A stretch of 64,000 nucleotides of DNA from Actinomycetota bacterium. Lineage in GTDB: Bacteria; Actinomycetota; Thermoleophilia; BMS3ABIN01. Numbering within the stretch: the stretch's first letter is position 1; the number at the start of each line of letters is the position of its first letter. The position numbers and the translations under genes are program-made. The stretch covers positions 27,802 through 91,801 of the forward strand of contig JAMDDD010000004.1 of the NCBI GenBank assembly GCA_023489275.1, given 5' to 3'. Under the pieces are notes generated by a model. That model made no database searches. It was not told the DNA's origin and worked only from the letters and a program-made list of their open reading frames with translations. Below, piece after piece: positions 19,507-34,311 of this stretch.

Positions 19507-19711
19507 GCCTTAAACCTCCTCGGAATCAGATAAATAGTTTATCAAAAAGGAGTTCCCACTTCCGGGTTCCCCGGTCCCTGGTTTCGACTTCTGGCTTTGG
19601 GGTTGCCGATCCGGCATCCGGAATCCATCGCCTGTCCAGGTTGTGGCTTTCTATTGCAGGGTATAAAATCCGACTATTCCGGAATGACCTGCCCTGGGAT
19701 TTTCAGGTAGT

Positions 19712-19755
19712 TTTTGGTTCATCCAGAATCCAGCATTCAGAATCCAGTATCTGCC
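19712..19755. repeat. GTTTTTGGTTCATCC-(AGAATCC)n element upstream of the IMPDH-family gene
   Basis: ggtagtttttggttcatccagaatccagcattcagaatccagtatc; 14 nt before the ATG at 19769. Confidence 0.5.
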
Positions 19756-19768
19756 AAACGGAGGTTTC

Positions 19769-20926
19769 ATGGAAGTAGAGATCGGGCGAGGCAAAAAGGG
19801 AAGACGGGCCTACGGCCTGGACGATATTGCTATCGTCCCCAGCCGAAGGACACGCGACGTCGAAGATGTTGACATCAGCTGGCAGATCGGCAATCACCAG
19901 TTGGCGATTCCCTGCCTCGCCTCCGCGATGGACGGCGTTGTTGACCCGAAGTTCGCGGTGGAGATGGGAAAGATCGGCGGGCTGGCCGTACTCAACCTCG
20001 AAGGCATCCAGACGCGCTTTGCCGACGCCGAGGAGCAGCTGAAAAAGATCGCGGCGCTGCCGGTTGACCAGGCGACGCGCGGGCTTCAGGAGATTTACCA
20101 GGAGCCCATCAAGCCGGAATTGATCAGCCAGCGGATCAGGGAGATCAAGGACCAGGGCGTGATCGCCGCTGCATCGCTTACCCCTCAGAAAGTTACCCAG
20201 TACTATGAATTGGCGCTCGACGCCGGTCTGGACGTGCTCATCATCCAGGGAACAGTGGTAAGCGCGGAGCATGTCAGCTCCGTGGTGGAGCCGCTTAACC
20301 TGAAAAAATTCATCGCCGACGTGCCGGTTCCTGTCATTGTCGGCGGCTGCGCCTCTTACACCACCGCCCTGCATCTGATGCGCACCGGCGCTATTGGCGT
20401 GCTCGTGGGCGTCGGGCCCGGCGCCGCCTGCACCACCCGGGGCGTTCTGGGGATTGGCGTCCCTCAGGCTACCGCGGTCGCGGACGCCGCTGCTGCCCGG
20501 GTGCAGCACTTGCTGGAGACCGGCAATTTCGTCAAAGTCATCGCCGACGGCGGCATGCGCACCGGCGGCGACATCGCCAAAGCAATCGCCTGCGGCGCCG
20601 ATGCCGTCATGATCGGCTCGCCGCTTTCCCGGGCCTTTGAAGCGCCCGGCCACGGCTATCACTGGGGCATGGCAACCTTCCACCCACAGCTTCCCCGGGG
20701 CACCCGGGTCAGGACAAATCAGGTGGCGAGCCTGAAAGAGATCCTTGTCGGACCGGCGCGTGAGAACGACGGCACCCTCAACCTGTTCGGTGCGCTCAAG
20801 ACGTCGCTGGCAACCTGCGGCTATGAGAACATCCAGGCGTTCCAGAAAGCGGAAGTGATGGTGGCGCCATCGCTCCAGACGGAAGGCAAGAAGCTGCAGC
20901 GCGAGCAGGACGTGGGGATGGGATAA
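19769..20926 (+). CDS. IMP dehydrogenase/GMP reductase family protein without CBS domains (GuaB3-like)
   Basis: 385 aa TIM-barrel of the IMPDH family (GLDDIAIVPSRRTRD, IVGGCASY, ADGGMRTGGDIAKAIACGADAVMIGS), no CBS pair. Confidence 0.8.
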   Translation: MEVEIGRGKKGRRAYGLDDIAIVPSRRTRDVEDVDISWQIGNHQLAIPCLASAMDGVVDPKFAVEMGKIGGLAVLNLEGIQTRFADAEEQLKKIAALPVDQATRGLQEIYQEPIKPELISQRIREIKDQGVIAAASLTPQKVTQYYELALDAGLDVLIIQGTVVSAEHVSSVVEPLNLKKFIADVPVPVIVGGCASYTTALHLMRTGAIGVLVGVGPGAACTTRGVLGIGVPQATAVADAAAARVQHLLETGNFVKVIADGGMRTGGDIAKAIACGADAVMIGSPLSRAFEAPGHGYHWGMATFHPQLPRGTRVRTNQVASLKEILVGPARENDGTLNLFGALKTSLATCGYENIQAFQKAEVMVAPSLQTEGKKLQREQDVGMG

Positions 20927-21106
20927 AATCCCAAGTTCCAAGTTTTGAGTCTTGGACTCTTTCGTCAGATTGTAAGCGTTTGACTCTTTAATAGGCCGGA
21001 AAATTTTGTCGTTCTGAGTCCTAAGTTGGCTGGGAAATAGCCAACCCATTGGATTTCCGGAGGGAAAGCTTGGAACCTGGAACTTTGAACCTGGAACCTG
21101 TTTCTC

Positions 21107-21976
21107 ATGCCTGGCCGCACACGTAAACGTTTGCCGGACGGACACCTGGTCCGTGCCCTCCAGGAAAACTTTGAATCCTTTTCCAAATCGCGCAAGGCGA
21201 TCGCCCGTTATCTCATCGATCATCTCTCCGAAGCGCCGGTGCTGTCGGCTCAGGAGCTGGCCCGGCGTACGAACACGACCAGTTCCACCGTAGTCCGGTT
21301 TGCCCAGAACCTGGGCTTTACCGGATTCACGGAAATGATGAAGGCAGCCTGGGAAGAGCACCGGCTGGCCGGCAGCAATAGCACCGCCGCCAAGCAGCTC
21401 CATTTTCCACTCGATGATGACTTCTCCGGCCGGGCCGTGCGCACCGATATCCTCATTCTGGAAGAAACGATCAAGCGCAATGATACCGATAACTTTTTGG
21501 AAATAATCGCTCAGCTGGAAAAAGCGGATCAGATCTACATTGCGGGAATGTCGGAAGCCGCGCTGGTTGTCAATTATCTTGATTATTACCTGTCGGTGAT
21601 GGGTGTGCCTGTCATCGCCGTTACTGACGGCACCGAGGACTCCGTCGGCCGCCTTGCCGGCATCGACCGGAAGTCGGCGCTGATTGCCGCGGGCTTTGGC
21701 AGCGGTCACCAGTTCCTGCTCCGGTTAATCAGAGCCGCCCGCGAACTGGACGTCTTCACCGTGGGCATTAGCGAGAACCGGATCTCAGAGGTCGCCAAAC
21801 TGGCCGACAAAAACCTTTACTGCTTTCAGGATTCAAGCTCTTTCGCGCCCTCGCTGGTTGGAGCTTTCAGCATCGCCAACGCCATCATCGCGGCGCTTTA
21901 CAGCCATAACAGGCGCGCGTACGATGCCCACATCTCCCGCCTCCGGCGCCTGCCGCTCAGCTCCGACTGGCTTTAA
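21107..21976 (+). CDS. MurR/RpiR family transcriptional regulator (HTH + SIS domain)
   Basis: N-terminal RpiR HTH (ARYLIDHLSEAPVLSAQELARRTNTTSSTVVRFAQNLGF) and C-terminal SIS domain. Confidence 0.8.
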   Translation: MPGRTRKRLPDGHLVRALQENFESFSKSRKAIARYLIDHLSEAPVLSAQELARRTNTTSSTVVRFAQNLGFTGFTEMMKAAWEEHRLAGSNSTAAKQLHFPLDDDFSGRAVRTDILILEETIKRNDTDNFLEIIAQLEKADQIYIAGMSEAALVVNYLDYYLSVMGVPVIAVTDGTEDSVGRLAGIDRKSALIAAGFGSGHQFLLRLIRAARELDVFTVGISENRISEVAKLADKNLYCFQDSSSFAPSLVGAFSIANAIIAALYSHNRRAYDAHISRLRRLPLSSDWL

Positions 21977-22036: not shown

Positions 22037-22978
22037 CTATTTCACCAGTTCCTGGAGTTCGTGCATGCGCTGCTCGTCGGACGGGTTGGACGTGCCCGGG
22101 GTTTCCATAATCATGGGAACTTCCGCCAGCTGGGGGTGGCGGGCGATGGCCTTTAGCCCGGCTGAAATGTTTCCGTGGCCGATGTGTTCATGCCGGTCAC
22201 GGAACGAAGCCCGCGCCACCGGCGAATCATTGAAATGGATCAGCCCCAGCCGGTCCAGGCCCACCAGTTCATTGAATTCGGCAATCGTCCGGCGGGCGGC
22301 GGCCGCTGATGAAAGGTCGTATCCGGCTCCCCAGAGATGCGCCGTGTCGAGGCAGATTCCCACCGGCGGGCTGATGCCCCGCGCCGCGGCTCCGGCCAGC
22401 ACCTGGGCCAGCTCCTCGAAGCTCGCTCCCACCGTATCACCCGAGCCGGCGCCGTTTTCCAGCAGCAAGGCGGTCCTGCTGATCCTCAGGCGGCTGATGC
22501 CGTCAAGAAGCGCCTCCAGCGATTTGGCGGCGGTGGCGCCCCGGCGGCTGCCGGGGTGAAAGACGACATATTCGCAGGAAAGCGCCTCCGCCCGGTCGAT
22601 ATTTGCCTGCAGCAGCCTGACGGACTTGGCGTAAATGGGAGCGTTGCGGCCCGTGCGGCAGGCAAGATTGATCAGGTAACCGGCGTGCAGGAAAACCGGG
22701 CGGATGTCATGCTCGTCCAGATAGCCGGCAAACCTCGCCGACCCGGCCAGATCGATCTTGCCGGGATTCCAGGCCGACGGATTGCCGGACATGATCTGAA
22801 AAGTGGTGCAGCCGATTTCGCAGGCATGGCGGGCTCCATTAAGCAAGCCGCCTCCCGTGCGGATGTGGATGCCGAGGCGGCGCAGCGGTGTTAGTTTCCC
22901 AGCAGGGACAGATGGTTCAGCGGCCAGTAAATGAGCTCGGCGCGGCCGATGACATTGTTCATGGGAACGAATCCCCAC
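22037..22978 (-). CDS. nfo: deoxyribonuclease IV (endonuclease IV, AP endonuclease family 2)
   Basis: GIHIRTGGGL...FHPGS...HFND match Nfo metal-binding motifs; the ATG at 22978 would overlap lepB by 88 nt, and the conserved N-terminus (LRRLGIHI) has no canonical in-frame start, only a CTG at 22883. Confidence 0.75.
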   Translation of the reverse strand: MGIRSHEQCHRPRRAHLLAAEPSVPAGKLTPLRRLGIHIRTGGGLLNGARHACEIGCTTFQIMSGNPSAWNPGKIDLAGSARFAGYLDEHDIRPVFLHAGYLINLACRTGRNAPIYAKSVRLLQANIDRAEALSCEYVVFHPGSRRGATAAKSLEALLDGISRLRISRTALLLENGAGSGDTVGASFEELAQVLAGAAARGISPPVGICLDTAHLWGAGYDLSSAAAARRTIAEFNELVGLDRLGLIHFNDSPVARASFRDRHEHIGHGNISAGLKAIARHPQLAEVPMIMETPGTSNPSDEQRMHELQELVK

Positions 22979-23667
22979 CGATGGCTGTCATAACTCTCAT
23001 CCCGGTTATCGCCGAGCACGAACAGCTGACCGGACGGCACGGTTTCAGGGGGCATGGTGTAGGTGGTTGGCCTTGCGTTGGGAACCACGAAAGGCTGGGC
23101 GCCCTTGCCGTCGTGTTTGTCAATCAGAACCTGATCATTTTTGACCTCGACTGTGTCCCCCGGGAGGCCGATGACCCGCTTGACAAATGGCGTATCCGAG
23201 CCGAGACTGGCCGGCGGATTGAAAACGATAACGTCGCCGCGGTGAATCGATTCAAAGTGGTAGACAAGACGGTCGGCAAGGATGCGGTCATTATCCTGGA
23301 TCGTCGGAATCATCGATCCGGACGGAATCTGATACGGTTTGGCGACGGTGGCCTGAAAAATCATCGCCACCCCGAAAGCGATCACCAGCGGCGCCACGAT
23401 ATCAAGAAAGATGATGCGTAAAACGCCGCGTTTCTTTTTTTTCGGCGCCACCGCTTCCGGCGCCTGTTCGGGAGCGTCGGGATTAAAGTAATCATAATCC
23501 TCGTACTCCTGATAGACGGAATCAGGCTCCCGCGCCGGCCGATGGCTCCAGCCCAGCTCCGCCGGCGGTGGAGTAATCCAGCCGCCCCGGGGCTCGCCGG
23601 AATTTTTCTTTCCTGTCTCTTCGCGGTCGTTTTCGGGGAACAGGTCTCCCCCGTTAGTATCAGGCAT
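22891..23667 (-). CDS. lepB: signal peptidase I with a long acidic N-terminal extension
   Basis: S26 motifs (PSGSMIPT, KRVIGLPGDTVEV, GDNRDESYDSHRWGFV); ~90-aa Asp/Glu/Tyr-rich cytoplasmic N-terminus before the TM. Confidence 0.85.
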   Translation of the reverse strand: MPDTNGGDLFPENDREETGKKNSGEPRGGWITPPPAELGWSHRPAREPDSVYQEYEDYDYFNPDAPEQAPEAVAPKKKKRGVLRIIFLDIVAPLVIAFGVAMIFQATVAKPYQIPSGSMIPTIQDNDRILADRLVYHFESIHRGDVIVFNPPASLGSDTPFVKRVIGLPGDTVEVKNDQVLIDKHDGKGAQPFVVPNARPTTYTMPPETVPSGQLFVLGDNRDESYDSHRWGFVPMNNVIGRAELIYWPLNHLSLLGN

Positions 23668-23769: not shown

Positions 23770-24990
23770 TTACAGCTCCATCAGCCGGACAAACTCCTGC
23801 TGGAAGGTCTTGTTCAGGGGCAGCGCCACGTGCCTGATGCTGGCGCGAAGATCTGTCAGCCGCCGCCGGTTTTCCTCGCTCAGCAGCAGCACGGCTCCCT
23901 GGCAGGCGGCGTCGGGAGTCACTTCGACGCCGGCGGCGTCCGGAAACATTTTCAGCAGGCGGGCATTGTCCAGATTGATATAGCTGCCAAAGGTGCCAGT
24001 AATCAGCATCCGCGATAGCTCCCCCGCGCCCAGCTTTGTTTGCAGAACCGAGATAGCCGCATGGATGGAGGCTTTCACCAGCTGGAAGGAACGGATATCG
24101 TGCTGGCTCACCGTAATCGGGCGCTCGCCGCCCGCGACCGTTACCGGCCCTTCCCGGAGAAGGCGCCCGCTGCCGTCGATCCATCCATTTCGCCTCATCT
24201 CGGCAATTATATCAATGAGGCCGGAGCCGCAAATGCCTCTTGGCTCACCGCCTCCCACTACCTCAAACCGGAATTTTTCGCCGTCGAGCCTGGCTTTAAA
24301 AATCGCCCCTTGAGTCGCCGAGAGTCCAAATGACATGTGAGAATCCTCGTAGGCCGGACCGGCCGGAGCTGACGCGACAAATATACGGCCTTCACAACCA
24401 AGTGCTATTTCACAGTTCGTACCCACATCAACCGCCAGCGCCGGCTTTTCGCTGGCGGCCATGTTCATCAGGAAGATATCCGCCAGGGCGTCGGCGCCCA
24501 CGAAGCCGAAAACCGGCCGGGGGACAAACAGCGTTGCCTCAGGCGCCGCCAGGCCCAGCGCCGCCGCCGGACCGAGGTAATCCTTGGCGCCCCTGATGTT
24601 AAAAGGCGTCCCGCACAGCGGGGCCGGATCGAGATCGAGGATAAAGGCGTACATGGCCGAGTTCCCCACGGCGACGATCTCCTTTAGATCGCGGGCGCCG
24701 ATCCCTGCCTCGTCACCGAGAAACCCCAGAGAATCATTGATCGCTTCGATCACCTCCCGGTTGAGCTCCTGCCTGGCCGCCGGGTTCCCGGCGGCCAGCC
24801 CCAAACGGGTGGCGATATCGGCGCCGTGCTGCTGTTGCGGATTGGGCAGAACTGAAGTGCCGGCAACCGCCCCGTCCGCCAGCCGCACCAGCCGGGCCCA
24901 GATGCTCGATGTGCCGACGTCTATCGCCACCCCGTAACCGGAATCCGGGGCGCTTCCGCGGCTGATCCTGCTGTCGATTTTATCTGGCAT
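23770..24990 (-). CDS. ASKHA-domain protein (DUF4445; RamA/RACo-type activase ATPase domain) without a ferredoxin domain
   Basis: 406 aa; phosphate-1 motif GVAIDVGTSSIW and the ASKHA core; no Cys cluster for [2Fe-2S]/[4Fe-4S]. Confidence 0.65.
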   Translation of the reverse strand: MPDKIDSRISRGSAPDSGYGVAIDVGTSSIWARLVRLADGAVAGTSVLPNPQQQHGADIATRLGLAAGNPAARQELNREVIEAINDSLGFLGDEAGIGARDLKEIVAVGNSAMYAFILDLDPAPLCGTPFNIRGAKDYLGPAAALGLAAPEATLFVPRPVFGFVGADALADIFLMNMAASEKPALAVDVGTNCEIALGCEGRIFVASAPAGPAYEDSHMSFGLSATQGAIFKARLDGEKFRFEVVGGGEPRGICGSGLIDIIAEMRRNGWIDGSGRLLREGPVTVAGGERPITVSQHDIRSFQLVKASIHAAISVLQTKLGAGELSRMLITGTFGSYINLDNARLLKMFPDAAGVEVTPDAACQGAVLLLSEENRRRLTDLRASIRHVALPLNKTFQQEFVRLMEL

Positions 24991-25124
24991 TCGCCTTTGT
25001 CAAATATTTTCTTAAGTAGCTGTCCCGGGCTCGAAACTCCGGGAAATTTTACCCGCCGGGAAGGGCCAGGTAAAGGAAAAACCGGATTTTGGATTTTGGA
25101 CTCCGGATTTTTTAACCTCTAAAG

Positions 25125-25256
25125 ATGGAGAATTGTCTTTCCAAAAGCCCATCTCCTGCCACCGGCCTGGAGGCCAAAGCAAATGGAAAGAACCATATTT
25201 CTCTGATAAACTTGTTTTGTAATATGGGGTGTGGGATGTGGGATAATTTCACTTAA
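25125..25256 (+). CDS. candidate small ORF (43 aa; Cys/Gly/Met/Trp-rich C-terminus NLFCNMGCGMWDNFT), possible precursor peptide
   Basis: single ATG ORF in the AT-rich gap 95 nt upstream of the B12-rSAM gene, same strand; no clear RBS. Confidence 0.2.
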   Translation: MENCLSKSPSPATGLEAKANGKNHISLINLFCNMGCGMWDNFT

Positions 25257-25350
25257 AGGGGGGATCTGCTTTAGAATGCCTCTCCTTTCCGGTCGCGGCC
25301 CAAATTATACCAAATGAATGCAAATGCATCAAAGTTGGGAGACAGCGTAA

Positions 25351-26808
25351 ATGAAGTCCATGGTTATCCTCCCTTCCTGGAAGCCTGACGATATCTATCC
25401 CGCCAAACTCGCCCGGTCCGCAGTCAGCTACCAGCACCCCCTGGGTCTGCTTTATATTGCGACCTGCGTGCAGGAGGCCGGCCACGAGGTCGAGCTGGTT
25501 GATGGCGCTTTCTGGACGCATCAGGAGGTCCTAGACAAGGTGCGCCGCTTCCGGCCCCGGTTTGTCGGCGTCTCCGCCAACGCTTCGATGTGGACCAAGG
25601 CCATCAAGACCGCGGCCGGCATCAAGGCGATTGATCCCGCCATCCACGTCAGCGCCGCCGGTCCCTACCCTTCGGCTGTGGAGGAAAAGTGCCTGGTCGA
25701 CTGCCCGGATTTCGATTCCGCGGTTATCGGAGAAGGAGAAAAAACCATGCCGGAGCTGCTGAGCCGGCTGGAAGCAAACGCCGGCCTGGAAGGGGTAGCC
25801 GGCACCGCCTTTCGCCGCGATGACGGCCGGGTTCACCTTAACGAGCCCCGGCCCCTGATCGAGGACCTGGATTCCATCCCGATTCCGCGGCGGGAGCTGC
25901 TGGGAGATTTTGACAAGTATGAATCGCCGCCGGGAAGCTACCGGCGCAAGCCGATCGCGATCGTGATGACCTCGCGCGGCTGCAAGGCTCGCTGCATCTA
26001 CTGCTTCCAGATGAAGGGGGAGCACCGCATCCGCTTTCGCAGCGTTGATAATGTCGTCCGCGAAGTCAAAGAACTGGTGACCGATTACGGCTTTCGCGAG
26101 ATCAGGTTCCTCGATGAGACCTTCACCGCGGACCGGGAGCGCGCCATGGAGCTTTGCCGGCGCTTTCGCGATATCAAACCCGATTTTAGTTTTTATGTAT
26201 CATCCCGCGTGAACACCGTTGACTTTGAGCTGCTGCGTGAAATGAAACGGGCGGGCTGCTGGGCGATCCTTTTCGGCGCCGAGAGCGGCGTTCAGAAAAA
26301 TCTCAACACGCTGCGGAAGGGCATCACCCTGGATCAGACCAGAGCCGCGGTGGCGGCCGCCAAGAAAGCCGGCCTGAAGGTTTATACTCCGTTTATTATT
26401 GGTATTCCGGGCGAGACATATGAGGAAGCGCTGGAAACAGTAGACTTCGCCATCGAGCTCGATCCGCATTACGCCAACTTTCACACAATGACTCCCTTTC
26501 CCGGAACGGAGCTCTACGACAACGTTGAAAAATACGGCGTCATGTCGTCCAATACTGACGATTACACTTTTGAAGGAGCGGCATTCGTGCCATTTTCCAT
26601 GACTCGCGAGGAAATCGAGCAGGTCCGCACCCTGGCTTTTCGAAAGTTCTATTCCCGGCCAGGTTTTATTTTTAAAAGGATTTTCGAGATTCGCAGCGTT
26701 CATGATCTGAAAACCGTATCGAAGGGCGCAGCGAGTTTTTTCTGGCTGTGGACGCAGAGAAACGCCGCGTCGGCGAAATCCGGGATTCCCGGCAAGAAAA
26801 CAGGGTAG
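25351..26808 (+). CDS. B12-binding-domain radical SAM protein (class B rSAM)
   Basis: 485 aa; N-terminal cobalamin-binding Rossmann-like domain, CKARCIYC radical SAM motif, GGGAGA RBS. Confidence 0.85.
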   Translation: MKSMVILPSWKPDDIYPAKLARSAVSYQHPLGLLYIATCVQEAGHEVELVDGAFWTHQEVLDKVRRFRPRFVGVSANASMWTKAIKTAAGIKAIDPAIHVSAAGPYPSAVEEKCLVDCPDFDSAVIGEGEKTMPELLSRLEANAGLEGVAGTAFRRDDGRVHLNEPRPLIEDLDSIPIPRRELLGDFDKYESPPGSYRRKPIAIVMTSRGCKARCIYCFQMKGEHRIRFRSVDNVVREVKELVTDYGFREIRFLDETFTADRERAMELCRRFRDIKPDFSFYVSSRVNTVDFELLREMKRAGCWAILFGAESGVQKNLNTLRKGITLDQTRAAVAAAKKAGLKVYTPFIIGIPGETYEEALETVDFAIELDPHYANFHTMTPFPGTELYDNVEKYGVMSSNTDDYTFEGAAFVPFSMTREEIEQVRTLAFRKFYSRPGFIFKRIFEIRSVHDLKTVSKGAASFFWLWTQRNAASAKSGIPGKKTG

Positions 26809-26816
26809 CGGCGGTA

Positions 26817-27857
26817 ATGAGCGCATCTGAAATTTCCTCCCCGTCCGTCTCGATTGTCATCCCGGTTTACAACGGCGCCAGAACCATCAGGCTGGTGCTG
26901 GCGGCCGTATATGCTTCAAAGTTTCCGGATTTCGAAGTCATAATTGTCAATGACGGCTCCGGGGACGACACCGCGGCCGTGCTGGACGGCTGCGCCGCCG
27001 GGTTTCCCTTCCGCCTGATCACCTTTGAGCGCAACATGGGAGTCTCCCGGGCGCGCAACGCCGGGGCCCATGCCGCCCGCGGCGAGATCATCCTCTTCAT
27101 CGACGCCGACGTCCTCATCCAGCCGGACACCATCGACCTCTGCGTGGAACGGCTCAACCGGGGCGACTGCGTTTGCGTCGGCGGCGCCTACACCGTTGAT
27201 GCCTGGGACAAGGACTTTTTTAGCAGGTTTCAGTCGCTTTATATCCATTATGTTGAAACCAAGAATCCTTATCCTGATTATATAGCCACGCACTGCATGG
27301 CCATTCGCAAGGATGTGTTTGAAGGCTACGGAAGCTTTATCGAGGACTCGTTCATCGGCCATCAGGCCAGCGTCGAGGACGTCGAATTTTCCCACAGGAT
27401 CCTGAACGCGGGCGAGCGCCTGACGCGACCGTCCTACATCCAGGTGACGCATATCTTTCGCTTCAGTCTGGTCCGGTCGATCCGCAATGCCGTGAAAAAA
27501 AGCAAGTACTGGACCATGTACTCTTTGAAGAACCGCGATGTCACCAAGGACTCCGGAGCTGCCTCATATGAGCTAAAAGCCAATGTCTCGACCCAGACTT
27601 TGAACCTGGTCTTTGTGGTGGCCGCCCTGGCTACGCGTTTCTGGTGGCTCCTTTTGCCTGTCTCGCTCCTGTACGGCGCTAATATCGGGGTCAACTTTAA
27701 TCTGTTCAAGTTGATGCTGAGAAAGCGCGGTCCCTGGTTTCTTATTCGCGGCCTGCTTTATTTTCAATTCATCTACCCATTTGCCGTCGCCTATGGATCT
27801 TTCATCGGCACTATGAAATATCTGTGGGAGGTCAAGCTGCTCCGCCGGTATGGATAA
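26817..27857 (+). CDS. family 2 glycosyltransferase, polyprenyl-phosphate sugar synthase-like (GtrB/ArnC/DPM1-type) with 2 C-terminal TM helices
   Basis: SIVIPVYNGARTI...VNDGSGDDT...DAD GT2 motifs; C-terminal TM pair; ATG 8 nt after the upstream rSAM stop. Confidence 0.8.
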   Translation: MSASEISSPSVSIVIPVYNGARTIRLVLAAVYASKFPDFEVIIVNDGSGDDTAAVLDGCAAGFPFRLITFERNMGVSRARNAGAHAARGEIILFIDADVLIQPDTIDLCVERLNRGDCVCVGGAYTVDAWDKDFFSRFQSLYIHYVETKNPYPDYIATHCMAIRKDVFEGYGSFIEDSFIGHQASVEDVEFSHRILNAGERLTRPSYIQVTHIFRFSLVRSIRNAVKKSKYWTMYSLKNRDVTKDSGAASYELKANVSTQTLNLVFVVAALATRFWWLLLPVSLLYGANIGVNFNLFKLMLRKRGPWFLIRGLLYFQFIYPFAVAYGSFIGTMKYLWEVKLLRRYG

Positions 27858-27859
27858 CC

Positions 27860-27938
27860 AAGTTTCCCGTTGCCAGTTTCCGGTTTCGAGCATCGAGGCC
27901 GGAAACTTGAAACTCGACACCAGAAACTCGAAACTTTA
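27860..27938. repeat. intergenic word-repeat hairpin (AGTTTC/GAAACT units) between the GT2 and rSAM/SPASM genes
   Basis: cagtttccggtttcgag vs ccggaaacttgaaactcg / cagaaactcgaaact, seen directly. Confidence 0.6.
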
Positions 27939-27942
27939 GTTT

Positions 27943-29028
27943 ATGTATTCTCCCCTAAAATACGCGCCCCAGATTTTATTGAAGAACAGGCCGGTTCAGT
28001 TCACGTTCTTCGTTACCTCCCGCTGCAACGCCCGCTGCCCGTTTTGTTTTTACTGGCGCGGGCGGCACAGCAAGCGCCGGGAACTCGATCTGGACGAGAT
28101 CGAGAAGATCTCCCGCGGGATGGGAAGCCTGTTATGGTTGCTTTTTTCTGGCGGAGAGATCTTTCTGCGGCAGGACTTTGTCGATATCGCCGGCTCCTTT
28201 TACCGGAATAACAGACCCGCGATAATCACCCTGCCGACAAACGGGCTGGCCCCGGACCTGATCATCCCCAAGACGGAGGCGATCCTGGCCCTGGCCAGCA
28301 AAAGCGCGGTGGTGGTCAAGGTCTCGCTGGACGGCCTCGGCGATGAGCATGACCGGATCCGCAATACTCCCGGCAGCTTCGAAAAGGCGCTCGAGACCTG
28401 GGGAGAACTTAGCCGTCTGCGCGACCGCTTTCCCAACCTGCAGATCGGCATCAATACTGTTTTCTGCCGGGAAAATCAGGACCATATGGATCAGATCATT
28501 GATTTTGTCAACAATCTTCCCGGATGCGAAACCCATACAATCTCGCTGGTCAGAGGGGACCCGGCCGCACCTGAAACAAAGGATATCGATCTGGAGAAGT
28601 ACCGCCGGGCAATCATGCGTCTGGAGTCTGACTTGAAAGGGGCAAGCCCCAAGATGTACCATTTCAACCTGTCGCGGATAAAATCCGCACAGGATCTGGT
28701 CCAGCGGCAGCTCATCTATGAAACCGTGCGCCAGGGCCGTCGTCAACTTCGCTGCTTTGCCGGGCGCCTGGCTCTGGTCATGAACGAGGTGGGTGACGTC
28801 TTTCCTTGCGAGATTCTGGATGAGCAGATGGGAAACATCCGCGAGGCCGGCTACGATATGATGAAAATCTACCGGTCGTCACCGGCGGACGCCGTCCGGG
28901 CCCAGATCAGTAATTCCCGGTGTTATTGCTCTCACGAATGTTATTTCGTCACAAATATTCTTTTCAACCCCTTGATACACGGCAAGGTGATCAGGCAATA
29001 CGCGAGTCTGCCGCGGCCGGCCCGGTGA
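27943..29028 (+). CDS. radical SAM/SPASM-domain protein
   Basis: 361 aa; CNARCPFC radical SAM motif plus C-terminal auxiliary-cluster cysteines (RCFAG, FPCE, CYCSHEC). Confidence 0.8.
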   Translation: MYSPLKYAPQILLKNRPVQFTFFVTSRCNARCPFCFYWRGRHSKRRELDLDEIEKISRGMGSLLWLLFSGGEIFLRQDFVDIAGSFYRNNRPAIITLPTNGLAPDLIIPKTEAILALASKSAVVVKVSLDGLGDEHDRIRNTPGSFEKALETWGELSRLRDRFPNLQIGINTVFCRENQDHMDQIIDFVNNLPGCETHTISLVRGDPAAPETKDIDLEKYRRAIMRLESDLKGASPKMYHFNLSRIKSAQDLVQRQLIYETVRQGRRQLRCFAGRLALVMNEVGDVFPCEILDEQMGNIREAGYDMMKIYRSSPADAVRAQISNSRCYCSHECYFVTNILFNPLIHGKVIRQYASLPRPAR

Positions 29029-30725
29029 ACCGGGACCAGCCGGTCCTGCCGCGCGTTTCCGTTGTTGACAACGTGCGGCACGGCCGGATAGCGGCGGTGG
29101 CCCGTGCCACGGTTATCTTCCTGTTCGTTCTTGCCGTCACCGTGCCTTTCCTGGGACAGGCGTTTCACGTTGACGACGCCATCTTCTGGGACTTTGCCCG
29201 CAATAACCTGTCCCATCCCCTGGAGCAGCATCTGCCCAACTATTTTCTGATGGGGAAAGAAATTGCGGCGATGCGGGACACCCATCCGCCCCTGGATGAG
29301 CTTTATATCTCGCTGATAATGTCCATTGCGGGGGTCACCGCTTCGGAGTTTTTTTTCCATCTGGGATTCATCGTGTTTCCCCTGATTGCCGGCGTTTCCA
29401 TGTATTTCCTCGGCCGGCGCTTCACAAAGCATCCCCTCGCGGCAAGCCTGCTGTTCCTGTCGGCGCCGGCGGTAATGGTGATGTCGCACACGCTGATGGC
29501 GGACCTGCCGATGACGGCCCTCTGGATGGCCGCCACCGCCGCGTACATCTATGGTGTCGATGCGGACAGCCGGCGGCTGCTGGCGTTTTCGAGCCTGCTG
29601 ATAACGCTGGCAATTTTCATGGGGTACCAGTCTCTGGCCCTTCTTGTCCTCCTGCCGGCATACGCCTGGATCCGGCGGGGACGTCCAAGCCGCCGGAACG
29701 CTCTGCCGTTCTTGCTGCCGCTCCTGTCCTTCGCGCTGTTTACGTTGTTTAATTACGCCCGCTACGAGTCGCCTCCCCGCTTTTCTCACGCCGGCGGTCT
29801 GGGCGTAACAGAGAATGACGTCATCAGCCGGTTTCAGGGGATGATACTGGAAATGGGGGGCATAACAATTTTCCCGCCGCTGCTCGCGGCAGGGTTCATG
29901 CTGCGGCGCAAAAAATATCTGGCTTTGCCGCTAATCGCAGCGATCGCGGCGCTTCTCGGCTGGCGCCAGCTGGCGCCCGGTTATCCGGTCGCCAGCGCCG
30001 TTTTGTTTGGCATATTTGTCTTCGCGGGCGCCTCGATGCTGACAGGCCTGATTACAGAAGGAATAATCCAAATCGTCAACTGGGCCCGGCGCCTTCCGCT
30101 CGACCGGGATTTTCTTTTTCTGGCCCTGTGGCTGGTTTCAATCCTGGCGGCAATTGTCATCCTGCTGCCCCATACCCCGGCCAAATACTATCTGCCCGTA
30201 TTTGCCCCGTTGATCCTGTTGATGTTTCGTGAGGTGGAAACGGTATTTACTTCCCGGCGGATCGTGACCGGTTTTGCCGTCCTGGCCATCGTATTATCCT
30301 TAGTCACCGGCTTCTGGCTCTCGCTCGCCGACTACGAGCTGGCCCGGGCCTACAAGGACTTTGCCCTGTCCGTCCAGAGCCGCTACCGGCCCTCAGGCAC
30401 GGTCTGGTTTGTGGGGGAATGGGGATTCCGGCACTACATGGAGCAACAAAATTACAAATATCTAACCTCGGACAGCACCGCTCCGAAAAAGGGGGATTTG
30501 ATCATCGAGCCCAGTTACATGCAAAGGCCGGTAGCGCCTTCCCTCCAGAGCCGGATGCACCTGATCGGGGAACCGGCGGCCAATTGGGAGGTGCCGGTGC
30601 GGGTGATGAACATGCAGGCCGATGCCGGTTTTTACGGGACATACTGGGGCCGGCTGCCCTTTACCATTACCAGTCTCCCCCTGGAGCGGTTTAAGGTATT
30701 CCGCGTCGGGGACGGCAGCGGCTAG
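29025..30725 (+). CDS. GT-C-type membrane glycosyltransferase (ArnT/PMT, COG1807-like)
   Basis: ~11 TM helices with an acidic first-loop motif (HVDDAIFWDF) and a ~150-aa C-terminal extracytoplasmic domain; GTG start overlaps the upstream stop (GTGA), suggesting translational coupling. Confidence 0.6.
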   Translation: MNRDQPVLPRVSVVDNVRHGRIAAVARATVIFLFVLAVTVPFLGQAFHVDDAIFWDFARNNLSHPLEQHLPNYFLMGKEIAAMRDTHPPLDELYISLIMSIAGVTASEFFFHLGFIVFPLIAGVSMYFLGRRFTKHPLAASLLFLSAPAVMVMSHTLMADLPMTALWMAATAAYIYGVDADSRRLLAFSSLLITLAIFMGYQSLALLVLLPAYAWIRRGRPSRRNALPFLLPLLSFALFTLFNYARYESPPRFSHAGGLGVTENDVISRFQGMILEMGGITIFPPLLAAGFMLRRKKYLALPLIAAIAALLGWRQLAPGYPVASAVLFGIFVFAGASMLTGLITEGIIQIVNWARRLPLDRDFLFLALWLVSILAAIVILLPHTPAKYYLPVFAPLILLMFREVETVFTSRRIVTGFAVLAIVLSLVTGFWLSLADYELARAYKDFALSVQSRYRPSGTVWFVGEWGFRHYMEQQNYKYLTSDSTAPKKGDLIIEPSYMQRPVAPSLQSRMHLIGEPAANWEVPVRVMNMQADAGFYGTYWGRLPFTITSLPLERFKVFRVGDGSG

Positions 30726-30726
30726 A

Positions 30727-32166
30727 TCAGAACAGGAACTGTCTGGCGCTACGCAAATAATTGTTAAGAGTATGATAATTTTTCATGACGTGTATATGTT
30801 TAGCGATAATCCTCGGCCTCAAGTAGAATTCCCGGTACGCCTGCCGGGTTGCTTTGACCAGATCTTCGTGAGTTACGTTCCGATGCCGGTAAACCGGAAC
30901 GCCGGTAGGTACATAATCGCGCCAGTCCTTCATTATCAGTAGGCCCTCACGGCTGTATTTCTCGAACTCCTCGGTTCCCGGGAAGGGAACCATCACGGCA
31001 AAGCCCGCGCTGTCTAACTTTAGCTCCTTCGCAAAGGAGATCGTCTCAGCAATTGTCTCTTTCGTCTCTTCCAGGAAGCCAAAGAGAAAATAGCCGTGCG
31101 CCAGGATGCCAGCCCCGCGAGTCTGCCGCACCGCCTCTGCCACCCGCGCTTTGCTGATCTTCTTGATCTTGAGCAGCATCTCCGCGTTCCCCACTTCGAT
31201 GCCGTATTGCATCAGGCGGCAGCCCGCTTTTTTCATAGCCGCCAGCATCTCCGGGTCAATTTCGTTGGCCCGGGCGCTGCATGTCCAAGCGATAGAAAGA
31301 TTTTTTTCCTCGATAAGCCGGCATATCTCCATCAGCCTGTTCCGGTCACAAATCATTGACGGGTCGCGAAAAGAAAACGTCGTTACGCCGAAATCAAGGT
31401 TTAGCCAGCTGATTTCATCCACGATATTTTCAGCGCTCCGCAGGCGGTACCGTCTGCCCTGCTGGGAAGTAACATCGCAGAAGCTGCAACGATAAGGACA
31501 TCCGCGACCGCTGATGATGCACGAAAATTTTCCTCGGTTTCCCCAGGCCGGATACGGGTTATACCTGGCAGGTTCGGGTAGCAGATCATGAGCCGGAAAT
31601 GGAAGGCTGTCAAGGTCCGAATTTCGGGCGCGGCCAGGATTGTGCTTTGGAATATTGCCTCCATTCATTGAAACCGTGCCGGCGATATTACCGATCGGAG
31701 AACCCGCGGCCACCGCATCACAAATCTCCTGCATTGTTTCTTCGCCCTCTCCCACCACAGCTATATCTACCGCATGATGGCTGGCGGCCTCTGCCGGTAA
31801 AGCAGTCACATGAGGTCCGCCGACGGCGGTGCAGATGTTTTTATTAACTCCTTTGACGATCACCGCGACCTTTTCCGCGTCGGGCCATTGCGGCGTTAAA
31901 GAAGAAATGCCAACAATCTGGGGCTGGAAAGAACGCACGGCCTCTCTGATTTCGCTGGCGGACGACCCGATCGAATATCCGTCCAATATTTGGACCACAT
32001 GATGTTTCTGCCGAATAGCAGCGGCAATGTAAGCCAACCCCAGGGGCTGCGTAGAAATCCAGGGACGTTGCACAGAATCTTTCCAGAGCCCTGACGGCGG
32101 TGTAATCAACAGGACCTTCACAGCCGCGGCGGCGCCCGCTTGCTTATAATTGCAAGATTTAGTCAA
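30727..32166 (-). CDS. B12-binding-domain radical SAM protein (second paralogue)
   Basis: 479 aa; cobalamin-binding N-domain, CPYRCSFC motif; convergent with the GT-C gene (stops 2 nt apart). Confidence 0.85.
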   Translation of the reverse strand: MTKSCNYKQAGAAAAVKVLLITPPSGLWKDSVQRPWISTQPLGLAYIAAAIRQKHHVVQILDGYSIGSSASEIREAVRSFQPQIVGISSLTPQWPDAEKVAVIVKGVNKNICTAVGGPHVTALPAEAASHHAVDIAVVGEGEETMQEICDAVAAGSPIGNIAGTVSMNGGNIPKHNPGRARNSDLDSLPFPAHDLLPEPARYNPYPAWGNRGKFSCIISGRGCPYRCSFCDVTSQQGRRYRLRSAENIVDEISWLNLDFGVTTFSFRDPSMICDRNRLMEICRLIEEKNLSIAWTCSARANEIDPEMLAAMKKAGCRLMQYGIEVGNAEMLLKIKKISKARVAEAVRQTRGAGILAHGYFLFGFLEETKETIAETISFAKELKLDSAGFAVMVPFPGTEEFEKYSREGLLIMKDWRDYVPTGVPVYRHRNVTHEDLVKATRQAYREFYLRPRIIAKHIHVMKNYHTLNNYLRSARQFLF

Positions 32167-32265
32167 AGAATCCCCACCGGATCGTGTTTTATTTGAATAA
32201 CAAGAAAAGAGATTGCTTTCATACTAATGCTACAAGCAACGCCCTTGTTGGTCAATTGCGCGGGG

Positions 32266-32910
32266 CTAGTGTCCCCTTTTGCCCAGTAGCTCCCGGCACA
32301 CCGCCAGCGTGCTTTTGACGTCACTGGCAAACGCATCGACGCCCACATCGCGGGCCAGCTCTTCCGAGTGGGCGGCTCCGCCGGAAACAACCTTCACGCG
32401 TCCGCGCAGGCCGGCCTCCTCCAACGCCGTAAGGACCTCGACCAGCGCCTGCTTGGTGGAGGTAGTAAAGGCAGAGAGGAGGAGCAGGTCTGCGTTTACC
32501 TCCTTGACCCGATCCACGAATTTGCCGGCAGGCACATTCACGCCGAGATCGTGCACTTCGTAACCGGAGGCCCGGAGCGCCGACACGATGATATTCTTGC
32601 CTATATTGTGGATATCGCCTTTGACCGTCCCGATGACGATGACGCCGCTAAAGTCACGACGCCGCTCAAACAGATATGGATCCAGCAACGAAAGCGCTTT
32701 CTCCACCGCTTCAGCCGAGCGGAGCATTTCCGGGATAAAATACTCCCCTGTTTCGTATTTCCCGCCGACAGTTTCCATAGCCCCGGAAAGGCTGTTGATG
32801 ATTGCGTCGGGCCGAACCTCCGCCACCCTGGTTATATCCTCGGCGATGGCGGCGGCCGCGTCGGCGTCACCGTCAATGATGGCCTTTTGAAAACGGCTTA
32901 ACAAATCCAT
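32266..32910 (-). CDS. corrinoid (cobalamin-binding) protein of methyltransferase systems (MtaC/MtbC-like)
   Basis: 214 aa; N-terminal helical cap plus Rossmann B12 domain with the DxHxxG motif (DIHNIGKN). Confidence 0.8.
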   Translation of the reverse strand: MDLLSRFQKAIIDGDADAAAAIAEDITRVAEVRPDAIINSLSGAMETVGGKYETGEYFIPEMLRSAEAVEKALSLLDPYLFERRRDFSGVIVIGTVKGDIHNIGKNIIVSALRASGYEVHDLGVNVPAGKFVDRVKEVNADLLLLSAFTTSTKQALVEVLTALEEAGLRGRVKVVSGGAAHSEELARDVGVDAFASDVKSTLAVCRELLGKRGH

Positions 32911-32928
32911 ATCTGTTCATTGTCCGGG

Positions 32929-33936
32929 TTAATATTTTCCAAATTCCCTGCCAAATTCGACCAGAGCAGCCACATTCTCTTCCGGAGCGCTTGATGGTAT
33001 CGAGTCTCCGGTGCTAAGGATAAACCTTCCGCCGGGCTTCGCGGCCTCCAGGGCCGCCCGGACCGCGCTTTCGACATCGGCGCGGCTGCCTTTTTCAATA
33101 ACGCCGACCGCATCGATATTCCCCTTCAGCACCACTGCGCTTCCCACCGCCTCGCGCGCCTTGATCAGGTCAACGGGAGAGTCGATCTCGAGCACGGCAG
33201 CTCCGGTCCTGGCCATATCCGGCAGGATTGGCAGGCTGTTCCGGCAGACGTGCAGAATCACCGGCAGCTTTCCCCCGAGCTCTTTAACTGCTTCCGCTTC
33301 TGACGGAAAGGCAAATTCGAGGTAGTGCCCCGGGGAAATCATGCTCGAAGATGCAAAGGAATCCTTGATGACCAGGGCGTCGACCCCGGAGCCGGCAAGC
33401 GCCAGTCCCAGCGTTATCGTTGCCGGAAAACAGGCATCGATTAGATCCCGGACCAGCCCCGGGTTCCCGTAAAAATCGGTCATGAAGCCGATCAAACCGC
33501 GAACCGTCGCCGCGAATTCAAACGGCGACCGGACCGACCCGATGACAACGCTGTCGCCGGCCGCCTCGACCAGCTGCTGAACGGGCTCCATCTTTCCCTC
33601 CGCCCAGGGATCCGGAACCTTGACCTTGGTCAGATCCTCCGGGCCGTTGACCAGCGTGTCAACCACCAGCGGCACCTGATGCCCCCGCACCTCCAGGGGA
33701 CACCCAAGGACATTTGGATTTTCACCCAGGCCCATTTCGGCGACGACGCCGTCGCAGCCGAGCCGCCTCAGCCCCTCGGCCAGCGCCGCCGCCATGCAGG
33801 CGCCGTCCAGCCAGCATTCATCATTTTTCCGGCCGGTCAGCCGGGGGGCAAAGTACCCGTCCAGGACGGGGATGACAGGGACAAAATCGGGCTGCTCGCC
33901 GGCGATGACCGCCGCAAACCTGTCGCGGGGATTCAT
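32929..33936 (-). CDS. MtaA/CmuA-type methyltransferase (uroporphyrinogen decarboxylase, URO-D, fold)
   Basis: 335 aa; URO-D family TIM barrel; 19 nt upstream of the corrinoid protein gene. Confidence 0.7.
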   Translation of the reverse strand: MNPRDRFAAVIAGEQPDFVPVIPVLDGYFAPRLTGRKNDECWLDGACMAAALAEGLRRLGCDGVVAEMGLGENPNVLGCPLEVRGHQVPLVVDTLVNGPEDLTKVKVPDPWAEGKMEPVQQLVEAAGDSVVIGSVRSPFEFAATVRGLIGFMTDFYGNPGLVRDLIDACFPATITLGLALAGSGVDALVIKDSFASSSMISPGHYLEFAFPSEAEAVKELGGKLPVILHVCRNSLPILPDMARTGAAVLEIDSPVDLIKAREAVGSAVVLKGNIDAVGVIEKGSRADVESAVRAALEAAKPGGRFILSTGDSIPSSAPEENVAALVEFGREFGKY

Positions 33937-33963: not shown

Positions 33964-34311
33964 TCATGCCTGGACGGCCTCCAGATGCGGGGCTTCCTTC
34001 CAGAGGATTTCAAGACGGTAAAAATCGCGCGACTCCGGCGTGAAAATGTGCGCCATTACATTTAGATAATCCATCAAAATCCAGTCTCCCTCCTGCTCGC
34101 CCTCCACCCGGGGGGGAGCGGCGCCGGCGCTTTTCAGGCGCATCCTGATTTCTTCGCAGATTGCCTTCGCCTGGCGCGGATTACGGCCGGTGCAGATAAC
34201 AAAATAATCGGTAAAAGAACACGTGTCTTTCATTTCAAGGACGATGATGTCCTCGGCTTTTTTCTCAGCGGCCGCCGCCGCGATCTCTTTTGCCAGCTGT
34301 TCGTTATTCAG
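33964..34311 (-). CDS. rsfS: ribosomal silencing factor RsfS (Iojap), probable CTG start
   Basis: DYLNVMAHIFTPESRDFYRLEILW core; the conserved N-terminus (EQLAKEIAAAAAEKKAEDIIVLEM) lies upstream of the first ATG and is bounded by an in-frame stop, so only a CTG at 34311 (GAGAGGT RBS 5 nt upstream) can start it. Confidence 0.7.
   Translation of the reverse strand: MNNEQLAKEIAAAAAEKKAEDIIVLEMKDTCSFTDYFVICTGRNPRQAKAICEEIRMRLKSAGAAPPRVEGEQEGDWILMDYLNVMAHIFTPESRDFYRLEILWKEAPHLEAVQA

Follow-up and report, generated by a model that had tools for sequence, protein, structure and literature searches.

Results

An eight-gene cluster between lepB and rsfS

We analysed a 64,000-nucleotide stretch of contig JAMDDD010000004.1 from an Actinomycetota bacterium (assembly GCA_023489275.1), hereafter the window, and in it the eight-gene cluster at positions 23770 to 33936. 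The cluster combines glycosyltransferases and radical S-adenosylmethionine (SAM) enzymes, two of them cobalamin-binding (class B enzymes, here B12-rSAMs), with three corrinoid-related proteins that we call the trio. At its left end, on the minus strand, lies the gene for a RACo/RamA-type ASKHA reductive activase without an Fe-S domain (the RACo-like ATPase, 406 aa, 23770-24990), recognised by Pfam and by its PDB match. Across a divergent intergenic spacer (24991-25350) follow four plus-strand genes. These encode B12a, a cobalamin-binding radical SAM enzyme of 485 aa with the motif CKARCIYC (25351-26808; Pfam B12-binding and Radical_SAM); GT2, a membrane-anchored family-2 glycosyltransferase (26817-27857; Pfam Glycos_transf_2); a radical SAM/SPASM enzyme with the motif CNARCPFC (27943-29028; Pfam Radical_SAM and SPASM); and GT-C, a polytopic glycosyltransferase of the PMT_2 family (566 aa, 29025-30725; Pfam PMT_2). 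The start of GT2 is ambiguous, as translation could begin at a GTG at 26748, which overlaps B12a, or at the ATG at 26817, 9 nt past the B12a stop. The last three genes lie on the minus strand and encode B12b, the second cobalamin-binding radical SAM enzyme (479 aa, CPYRCSFC, 30727-32166; Pfam B12-binding and Radical_SAM), an MtaC/MtgC-like corrinoid protein (214 aa, 32266-32910; Pfam B12-binding_2 and B12-binding) and a URO-D-fold, MtaA-like methyltransferase of what we call the STGDS subfamily (335 aa, 32929-33936; Pfam URO-D). Note that only one base separates the ends of the convergent genes for GT-C and B12b (30725-30727), which leaves terminators no space.

The cluster is bordered on the left by lepB, for signal peptidase I (22891-23667, minus strand; Peptidase_S26 annotation on locus L001), and on the right by rsfS (33964-34233, minus strand; PF02410 RsfS on L001 and L002), which is co-directional with the URO-D, corrinoid-protein and B12b genes. 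Both flanks are housekeeping blocks: secDF, tgt, queA/H, ruvABC, pdxST, nfo and lepB on one side, and rsfS, a LytR_C protein gene, nadD, proA/B, murA and the atp operon on the other.

An original prediction, made from the sequence alone, had proposed these eight genes, and listing and translating the open reading frames (ORFs) recovered every one of them in its place. Each of its domain calls scored above the Pfam gathering threshold, SPASM narrowly, and the motifs it quoted (CKARCIYC, CPYRCSFC and DIHNIG) are all present in the translations. The two B12-rSAMs that it took for paralogues are 31% identical, and the GTGA stop/start overlap that it placed between the SPASM and GT-C genes lies at 29025-29028. 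Its observations on genes and domains stand, whereas its interpretation is only partly supported. None of the eight proteins reaches a curated NCBIfam cutoff.

The trio: activase, corrinoid protein and an unusual URO-D enzyme

The activase matches Raco_middle (PF17651, 4.4e-33) and RACo_C_ter (PF14574, 2.1e-52), as well as the RACo structures 3zyy (4.8e-49) and 4c1n (2.2e-49), and it keeps both ASKHA phosphate loops (DVGTS at residue 24 and DVGTN at residue 188), so that the middle and ASKHA domains of the family are in place. Its alignment covers residues 197-615 of the 631 in 3zyy, which shows that the 2Fe-2S domain and the linker are absent; in support of this, Pfam gave no Fer2 or Fer4 match. 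The loss of the Fe-S domain, already proposed from the sequence, is thus borne out. The corrinoid protein has the expected two domains, a cap (PF02607) and a Rossmann B12 domain (PF02310) with the DxHxxG signature (DIHNIG, residue 99), and scores 163 bits on the NCBIfam model MtgC_2, whose cutoff is 370.

The third protein has the URO-D fold (PF01208, 3.9e-53), and its best NCBIfam and PDB matches are methylcobamide:coenzyme M (CoM) methyltransferases (TIGR01463, 123.5 bits against a cutoff of 235; MtaA, 4ay7). In the alignment to MtaA, LHICGN falls on LHVCRN and PGCG on TGDS. The zinc site therefore keeps His229 and Cys231, while its third ligand has changed from Cys to Asp311 (within STGDS), and this His-Cys-Asp set is invariant in the subfamily. 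Hence, of the "MtaA/CmuA-type" label proposed originally, the URO-D fold holds and the standard MtaA zinc site does not. The subfamily is narrow: homologues within the clade of the window are 64-98% identical and a few others 39-54%, after which identity falls to about 30%. A HMMER search against 1.84 billion representatives returned 662 relatives at E<=1e-30; ligands were checked in 155 sequences (148 top representatives, the window protein and six earlier matches), and 18 of the 155 had His-Cys-Asp and 129 the canonical His-Cys-Cys.

Possible sugar chemistry of the core enzymes and a putative lipid-linked donor

Both B12a and B12b have the class B architecture, an N-terminal B12-binding domain (PF02310) followed by a radical SAM domain (PF04055) with CX3CX2C. 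The best NCBIfam match of B12a is the hopanoid enzyme HpnJ (TIGR03471), at 227.6 bits against a cutoff of 577.6; B12b scores 205.6 bits on the same model. Neither enzyme can thus be assigned to that family, and no squalene, hopene or hpn gene occurs among the annotated genes of the 64-kb window. The AlphaFold2 model of B12a (pLDDT 82, pTM 0.81) has as its closest solved fold AprD4, an aminoglycoside sugar diol-dehydratase (TM-scores 0.71/0.75), followed by TsrM, MgmA, CysS, OxsB and TokK, which confirms the class B fold (TM-scores 0.6-0.7), and AprD4 is its best match by sequence as well as by fold. Since the nearest characterised relatives, HpnJ and AprD4, act on sugar rings, these comparisons suggest that B12a does so too.

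GT2 has a Glycos_transf_2 domain (PF00535, 9.8e-32) with the DxD-type motif DAD, a hydrophobic segment at residues 263-281 and more helices up to its C-terminus, which is the architecture of polyprenyl-phosphate family-2 glycosyltransferases (a GT-A domain followed by C-terminal helices). Among the precomputed Pfam matches of its orthologues are Glyco_transf_21 and Glyco_trans_2_3, two families with many lipid glycosyltransferases. GT-C scores 37.3 bits on PMT_2 (PF13231; cutoff 26.1), and a hydropathy scan gave seven to nine hydrophobic regions (12 overlapping peaks). Three acidic residues (D50, D51 and D56) are invariant in 15 orthologues and lie just past the first transmembrane segment, as expected of a GT-C active site in a predicted first extracytoplasmic loop. 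GT-C is thus a polytopic member of its family, and note that it has no PDB sequence match even at E<=1. As GT2, with its hydrophobic C-terminus, is encoded two genes upstream of GT-C in the same plus-strand run, the sequences suggest the classical pairing of an enzyme that makes a lipid-phosphate-sugar donor with one that uses it.

The SPASM match of the remaining enzyme is marginal (PF13186, 22.3 bits against 21.5). Its C-terminal part has five cysteines (C271, C289, C327, C329 and C333, in the arrangement CX17C and CXCX3C) against the seven of the full motif, a reduced, SPASM/twitch-like version, and all its NCBIfam matches are well under cutoff. A mycofactocin cluster is not indicated: the models MftF and MftC score 90 and 56 bits against cutoffs of 280 and 265, and no mftA or mftB was found.

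The spacer between the activase and B12a genes

Two stretches of the 24991-25350 spacer, AG.GTA.CAGAAA and TGGAA..AG..ATATT..TCTG.TA.ACT, are kept in at least 80% of 21 orthologous spacers, and may represent a shared operator or promoter. The spacer has promoter-like hexamers on both strands, and a promoter and terminator scan gave nothing decisive. No cobalamin riboswitch or other RNA was detected by Rfam, either at the gathering threshold over the whole window or at E<=1 between 23500 and 34500.

Across the 21 orthologous loci no conserved small ORF was found in this spacer, the sole intergenic region compared across relatives. This gives no support to the suggestion, made in the original prediction, of a glycosylated peptide modified by the radical SAM enzymes. 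The remaining intergenic gaps of the cluster measure about 30-100 bp.

The cluster is ancestral in its clade and consists of three layers

Identical copies of the cluster were seen solely on two independent contigs derived from the Sequence Read Archive. The closest homologues of B12a (75-96% identity) belong to uncultured Actinomycetota that carry the labels Thermoleophilia, Gaiellales or Actinomycetes. We surveyed 20 species-level related loci by tblastn, counting in each case the loci with sufficient flank, and the whole arrangement recurs in them, which answers the question of neighbourhood conservation raised in the original prediction. The RACo-like gene was present in 20/20 loci, GT2 in 16/16, SPASM in 15/15, GT-C in 14 of 15 (43-91% identical), and the corrinoid-protein and URO-D genes each in 14/14. 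The borders are equally stable, with lepB on the left in all 18 loci and rsfS on the right in 13 of 14. Because gene content and the lepB and rsfS borders are kept across the related loci, the cluster is an ancestral, fixed feature of this Actinomycetota clade. The accessory insertion proposed originally is therefore not borne out. A recent insertion was considered and ruled out by the conserved position; only B12b is compositionally deviant, with a GC content at third codon positions of 0.60 compared with 0.71-0.73 in neighbouring genes.

Within this stable frame, the place between the GT-C and corrinoid-protein genes is variable (L003 and L009-L027): it holds none, one or two B12-rSAMs, which belong to two families. 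The B12b family accounts for 11 copies in 9 loci, the window included, and is duplicated in L003 and L012. The second family occupies four loci, is about 34% identical to B12b and, like B12a and B12b, has HpnJ as its top NCBIfam match (206-228 bits over the three). It is found in the closest relative of the window, L009, whose B12a is 96% identical to the one in the window. In L023 and L024 the slot is empty. In L015 and L022 the slot additionally contains a minus-strand ORF of some 625 aa.

Our results thus separate the cluster into three layers with different evolutionary histories: a core (B12a-GT2-SPASM), a variable B12-rSAM slot and the corrinoid trio. The three modules of the original prediction are real as parts; they do not share one history, as the core occurs elsewhere without corrinoid genes and B12b sits in the variable slot.

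The core occurs in distant phyla, next to sulfur-trafficking genes

A scan with one genome per species gave 418 relatives of B12a, a family so conserved that column identity averages 67% over 29 sequences from several phyla. Outside the clade we surveyed 64 loci from Nitrospirota/Thermodesulfovibrionia, Desulfobulbales, other Actinomycetota, some proteobacterial metagenome-assembled genomes (MAGs) and Hydrothermarchaeota archaea, in which B12a is 51-57% identical to that of the window. Orthologues of the SPASM enzyme (25 of 53 loci, 43-53% identical) and of GT2 (22 of 49, 38-46%) lie beside it as a convergent pair. Because all three core genes have orthologues that occur together in distant phyla, as well as in a single archaeal MAG (L080, the only archaeal genome in which the full core was seen), the triad appears to be a functional unit. 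The B12a family, together with a flavoprotein described below, occurs in both archaea and bacteria. What these share is soluble or polyprenyl-linked sugars, not core lipids, which suggests, in support of the sugar-carrier reading developed below, that the substrate is of that kind.

Immediately upstream of B12a, 49 of 59 loci outside the clade carry the gene for a PRK07208-type flavoprotein, which scores 471 bits on NF005548, above its cutoff. YTD-type (YedE-TusA-DsrE) sulfur-trafficking genes are frequent neighbours (YeeE in 30/47 loci, TusA in 31/50, DsrE-like in 28/42). A PMT_2-like membrane protein accompanies the core in 25 of 42 loci; as a protein of 560-650 aa, it is encoded in many of them between the dsrE-like gene and yeeE. 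We considered whether it is the orthologue of the clade GT-C and rejected this, because hhalign gave only 91% probability over 136 of 566 columns; it is a distant, non-orthologous relative within the GT-C superfamily. Neither the flavoprotein nor the YedE, TusA and DsrE genes gave a tblastn match in the window, and none was found in the 13 clade loci. The trio and the flavoprotein never occurred together beside B12a: the flavoprotein is found in 49/59 loci outside the clade and 0/13 inside, and the trio in 14/14 inside and 0 of 38-54 outside.

The core and its flavoprotein directly adjoin DsrE-like, YeeE and TusA genes in L004 (3363-14038) and L008 (1632-14281), and further such loci are L031, L034, L040, L066, L072, L077, L078, L082 and L087. 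They span Nitrospirota, Desulfobulbales, some Actinomycetota, proteobacterial MAGs and one archaeon. In the papers on YTD clusters that we consulted we found no mention of radical SAM or glycosyltransferase neighbours.

The trio recurs beside unrelated B12-rSAMs

Conserved gene order inside a single clade says little about function, and the trio was therefore sought elsewhere. Outside the clade, the URO-D enzyme of the STGDS type was found in several other settings, its orthologues being 28-46% identical to that of the window. In L089, the RACo-like (without Fe-S domain), URO-D and corrinoid-protein genes lie among genes for a radical SAM enzyme, four PMT_2 proteins, a carbamoyltransferase, a GDSL protein, a DegT aminotransferase and two B12-rSAMs. 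L091 and L092 have an operon with RACo-like, URO-D, corrinoid protein, aminotransferase, unknown and two B12-rSAM genes. In L143 (1691-10144), a RiPP-like operon (RiPP, ribosomally synthesised and post-translationally modified peptide) encodes a B12-rSAM of 668 aa, a 61-aa ORF, two PDZ/DUF512 radical SAM enzymes and then an activase lacking Fe-S, the URO-D enzyme and the corrinoid protein.

The fourth setting is in the cultured Paenibacillus albidus (L142; GCA_014644435.1, BMKR01000042.1), where a co-directional run encodes a full-length RACo with Fer2, a B12-rSAM, three further radical SAM enzymes, an oxidoreductase, an adenylating enzyme, a carrier protein, the STGDS URO-D enzyme, an ABC transporter and a BtrH-like protein. 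No stand-alone corrinoid protein was found there within 10 kb. We also considered a corrinoid domain fused to the long RACo of this locus, and the test was negative. L142 is therefore compatible with a direct action on the B12 domain of the rSAM itself.

By type, these contexts are one glycan-like, one aminotransferase-linked, one RiPP-like and one with a carrier protein and BtrH, and a B12-rSAM is the sole feature common to the four arrangements. The B12-rSAMs themselves are not closely related, those of L089 and L091 being only about 25% identical to B12a and B12b, while the trio orthologues of these loci are 33-36% (RACo-like), 39-46% (URO-D) and 46% (corrinoid protein) identical to the proteins of the window.

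As a control, the metagenome scan supplied 48 further URO-D loci (405 kb in total, 16 of them at least 10 kb). None of the 48 had a B12-rSAM, on which tblastn and a purpose-built hidden Markov model agreed, and in the motif scan 39 had the canonical Cys, 9 were unreadable and 0 had STGDS. Since the other enzymes differ between contexts and the control loci have no B12-rSAM, we conclude that the STGDS URO-D enzyme, usually together with the corrinoid protein and the RACo-like ATPase, associates specifically with B12-rSAMs, in roughly five gene arrangements. The idea of a dedicated corrinoid accessory system for B12-rSAMs, one of those put forward originally, gains support from the four arrangements in which the URO-D/RACo-like pair stands beside unrelated B12-rSAMs.

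L090 (9750-11312) has rsfS, then a fragmented URO-D gene of the STGDS lineage (51% identical), then a transposase, amid numerous split genes. Either the copy is decaying or the assembly is poor, and the locus was set aside from the comparison.

Discussion

A tentative model for the cluster

The starting point of our model is what was observed, namely the gene content and domain identities of the cluster, its synteny, the histories of its layers and the recurrent, subfamily-specific co-location of trio and B12-rSAMs. We tentatively propose, with rather less than even confidence, that the core produces a radical-modified, lipid-linked sugar that GT-C delivers to the envelope, and that the trio serves the B12-rSAMs by corrinoid-based methyl relay or by reactivation. 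The membrane-anchored GT2 would load a sugar onto a lipid carrier, most likely polyprenyl phosphate, at the cytoplasmic face. B12a and the SPASM enzyme would then remodel the lipid-linked sugar, C-methylation, deoxygenation and ring rearrangement all being possible, and the translationally coupled GT-C would pass the product on to an acceptor of the envelope, on the outer side of the membrane. Lineage-specific tailoring may come from the interchangeable B12-rSAMs of the slot, B12b in the window. Carrier, sugar chemistry and acceptor are inferred here, and so are, in the steps that follow, the methyl donor and the direction and target of methyl or electron transfer.

The trio would serve the B12-rSAMs themselves. 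Its URO-D enzyme would take a methyl group from a donor and place it on the cob(I)alamin of the corrinoid protein, and its ATPase would drive the re-reduction of inactive cob(II)alamin. With the resulting methyl-corrinoid or activated cofactor, the B12-rSAMs would stay in a methylated, active state, and the second SAM normally consumed by these enzymes would be saved or backed up. It is possible, though less likely than not, that the trio is a portable accessory system for cobalamin-dependent radical SAM enzymes that had gone unrecognised, acting by methyl loading, by reductive rescue or by both, through the corrinoid protein or through the enzyme's own B12 domain. A precedent for a helper function of the trio comes from Phaeobacter and Desulfovibrio, in which reactivation of the B12 of methionine synthase depends genetically on DUF4445/RamA-like proteins (Price et al. 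2018, PMC5764234).

Several points weigh against this model. Class B radical SAM methylases re-methylate their own cobalamin from SAM; to our knowledge they need no helper, and we know of no established enzymatic step in which a methyl group passes from cobalt to cobalt between proteins. The B12-rSAMs of the cluster need not be methylases, and their assistance by the trio is predicted from gene context. The activase lacks its electron-delivering Fe-S domain in 6 of the 7 loci checked (the window, L089, L091, L092, L143 and L144; L142 keeps Fer2). No substrate-specific MT1 methyltransferase (MtaB, MttB or MtgB type) and no pterin-binding methyltransferase was found in the window or in L089, L091, L142, L143 or L144. 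In L144 (4952-9986) the trio, again with an activase lacking Fe-S, is encoded between an upstream PCMT-like SAM methyltransferase and two downstream proteins, AdoMet decarboxylase and GNAT; no B12-rSAM is visible there, and the contig ends 2.4 kb downstream. The independent architectures of the trio number only about five, and outside the clade B12a does without it, as a RACo-like, corrinoid or URO-D gene was found in 0 of 38-54 B12a loci there.

The glycosylation part of the model has its own difficulties with GT2. Its PDB matches (DPMS, GtrB and ArnC, 1e-6 to 4e-10) are restricted to the N-terminal GT-A part; it scores 45.5 bits on the ArnC model, whose cutoff is 529, and its best NCBIfam match is MftF, at the score given above. 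There is thus no specific sequence similarity to ArnC, GtrB or DPMS in NCBIfam or the PDB, and the label "GtrB/ArnC-like" is not borne out by sequence. Moreover, the single-sequence AlphaFold model of GT2 is unusable (pLDDT 42).

Alternative explanations

The strongest competitor, doubtful as we think it, is that the trio takes part in the same pathway as an ordinary tailoring methyltransferase and does not serve the radical SAM enzymes. As in MtaA/MtbA or the bifunctional MtsA/MtsB system, the URO-D enzyme would use the corrinoid protein to attach a methyl group to a hydroxyl or thiol of the product, or to remove one, the ATPase would be its activase, and B12-rSAMs would be close by only because B12-using pathways cluster. 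This would fit the relationship of the URO-D protein to methylcobamide:CoM methyltransferases and the invariance of the His-x-Cys part of its substrate-activating metal site, and a non-thiol acceptor could explain why the third ligand is now Asp. MtsA/MtsB, in which one URO-D enzyme and one corrinoid protein run a full methyl transfer, is a precedent for the pair. What speaks for a role of the trio in the service of the B12-rSAMs is that its contexts vary widely in their other enzymes while the B12-rSAMs are constant, that no canonical URO-D control locus has B12-rSAM neighbours, and that a single active-site signature would be unexpected in an enzyme tailoring chemically different products. 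Computationally, however, the two are hard to separate.

The other alternatives concern the product or the origin of the cluster. It is unlikely that the core makes a modified membrane-lipid head group, with GT2 glycosylating a lipid directly, in the style of HpnI or the ceramide and diacylglycerol glucosyltransferases, B12a rearranging the sugar like HpnJ or calditol synthase, and GT-C in a separate role. HpnJ is indeed the top NCBIfam match of B12a, B12b and the alternative slot enzyme, and the GT2 orthologues match Glyco_transf_21 and Glyco_trans_2_3. Yet the HpnJ scores stay far below the cutoff of 578 bits, the window holds no hopanoid or other lipid-synthesis genes, the B12a family spans archaea and bacteria, whose core lipids differ, and GT-C is translationally coupled to the SPASM gene.

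We consider it very unlikely that the corrinoid genes are left over from, or still belong to, a methylotrophic energy-metabolism module (of the methanol, methoxy or methylamine type) linked by coincidence to glycosylation genes in one lineage. Such an origin would agree with the linkage within the clade being a single inherited arrangement and with B12a orthologues elsewhere never being accompanied by the trio; against it, no MT1 or methyl-tetrahydrofolate methyltransferase lies nearby, the URO-D subfamily is narrow and its metal site non-canonical, and the trio was found again with other B12-rSAMs in four further architectures. Least probable of all is a RiPP-type cluster, in which SPASM and B12 radical SAM enzymes, common RiPP maturases to which the weak NCBIfam matches also point, would modify a ribosomal peptide that is then glycosylated: the trio context of L143 has a 61-aa ORF between radical SAM genes, but in our cluster Pfam finds no RiPP recognition, protease or peptide-export genes, the activase-B12a spacer has no conserved small ORF in 21 loci, the other gaps are short and the SPASM domain is reduced.

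Comparison with characterised systems

All parts of the cluster belong to known families; what is new is how they are combined, together with the His-Cys-Asp subfamily of URO-D enzymes and the specific link of this subfamily to class B radical SAM enzymes. We found no description in the literature of the trio with B12-rSAMs, or of the gene combination as a whole, and a review from 2025 on cobalamin-dependent radical SAM enzymes uses none of the terms "corrinoid protein", "chaperone" and "accessory". The claim of the original prediction that the modules share no characterised pathway is thus supported, as no paper describing them together was found and no characterised family claims any of the proteins.

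The trio resembles the corrinoid methyl-transfer systems of methanogens and acetogens (MtaABC with RamA; MtsA/MtsB; the O-demethylases, with their MT-I, corrinoid protein, MT-II and activating enzyme; CoFeSP-RACo) in its URO-D fold nearest to MtaA, its two-domain DxHxxG corrinoid protein and its RACo/RamA-type ASKHA ATPase. It differs in having no MT1 or pterin-binding MT-II nearby, an Asp as third zinc ligand, an activase without Fe-S domain, scores well under the family cutoffs and a location among radical SAM and glycosyltransferase genes instead of C1-catabolic ones. RamA-like (DUF4445) proteins likewise act as activases for a non-methanogenic B12 enzyme, but those carry ferredoxin domains and serve MetH, in split methionine synthases (PMC5764234), whereas the activase described here has no Fe-S domain and has radical SAM neighbours.

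B12a and B12b share with HpnJ, AprD4, TsrM, MgmA, CysS, OxsB and TokK the B12-binding Rossmann domain and the CX3CX2C barrel, but reach the cutoff of none of the characterised families. We know of no characterised class B enzyme that uses a separate corrinoid protein, methyltransferase or activase. The hopanoid genes HpnH/HpnI/HpnJ follow a similar logic, in which a sugar attached by a GT2 is reshaped by a B12-rSAM, with another radical SAM enzyme involved, and HpnJ is the best model match; in contrast, the window scores about one third of the cutoff and has no squalene or hopene genes, and the B12a family is also archaeal.

Like the pairs ArnC/ArnT, DPM1/PMT, GtrB-type and CsbB/YfhO, the cluster has a membrane-anchored GT-A enzyme and a PMT_2 protein with an acidic first-outer-loop motif in one operon. 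Unlike in those, the GT2 is not specifically ArnC, GtrB or DPMS, two radical SAM enzymes are intercalated, and there are no flippase, sugar-nucleotide synthesis or acceptor genes. Finally, the YTD neighbourhood of Nitrospirota and Desulfobulbales has orthologues of B12a, GT2 and SPASM and a PMT_2-like protein, but the window has neither YTD genes nor the PRK07208-type flavoprotein, and the YTD loci lack the corrinoid trio.

Implications

Class B radical SAM enzymes are one of the largest enzyme groups of unknown function, and they are hard to reconstitute, often because the cobalamin ends in an inactive state. If the trio is indeed a methyl-loading or reactivation kit, it would change how the catalytic cycle and the SAM economy of these enzymes are understood, giving them a SAM-independent methyl supply or a repair route. 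It could also offer a practical tool for recalcitrant class B enzymes in vitro or in heterologous hosts, and the STGDS signature of the URO-D enzyme would flag B12-rSAM pathways in genomes. Paenibacillus albidus, which is cultured, is a tractable system for the helper hypothesis.

The core, for its part, is conserved from deep-subsurface Actinomycetota to Nitrospirota, Desulfobulbales and archaea. The YTD cluster, into which it is wedged in many lineages, is used as a marker of sulfur disproportionation, and an unrecognised envelope or sugar modification may thus be tied to this metabolism.

Other features of the window

The window has no tRNA and no Rfam element. The 668-aa ORF at 19703-21709 (minus strand) is the shadow of two plus-strand genes, one IMPDH-like (19769-20926) and one for an RpiR-family regulator (21107-21976). 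Two window ORFs have no Pfam family (53174-54976, minus strand, 600 aa; 55187-56770, plus strand, 527 aa). The window also encodes a 930-aa BNR/Ycf48-like protein (50183-52975, minus strand) and a caspase-like C14 peptidase (6803-7693, plus strand).

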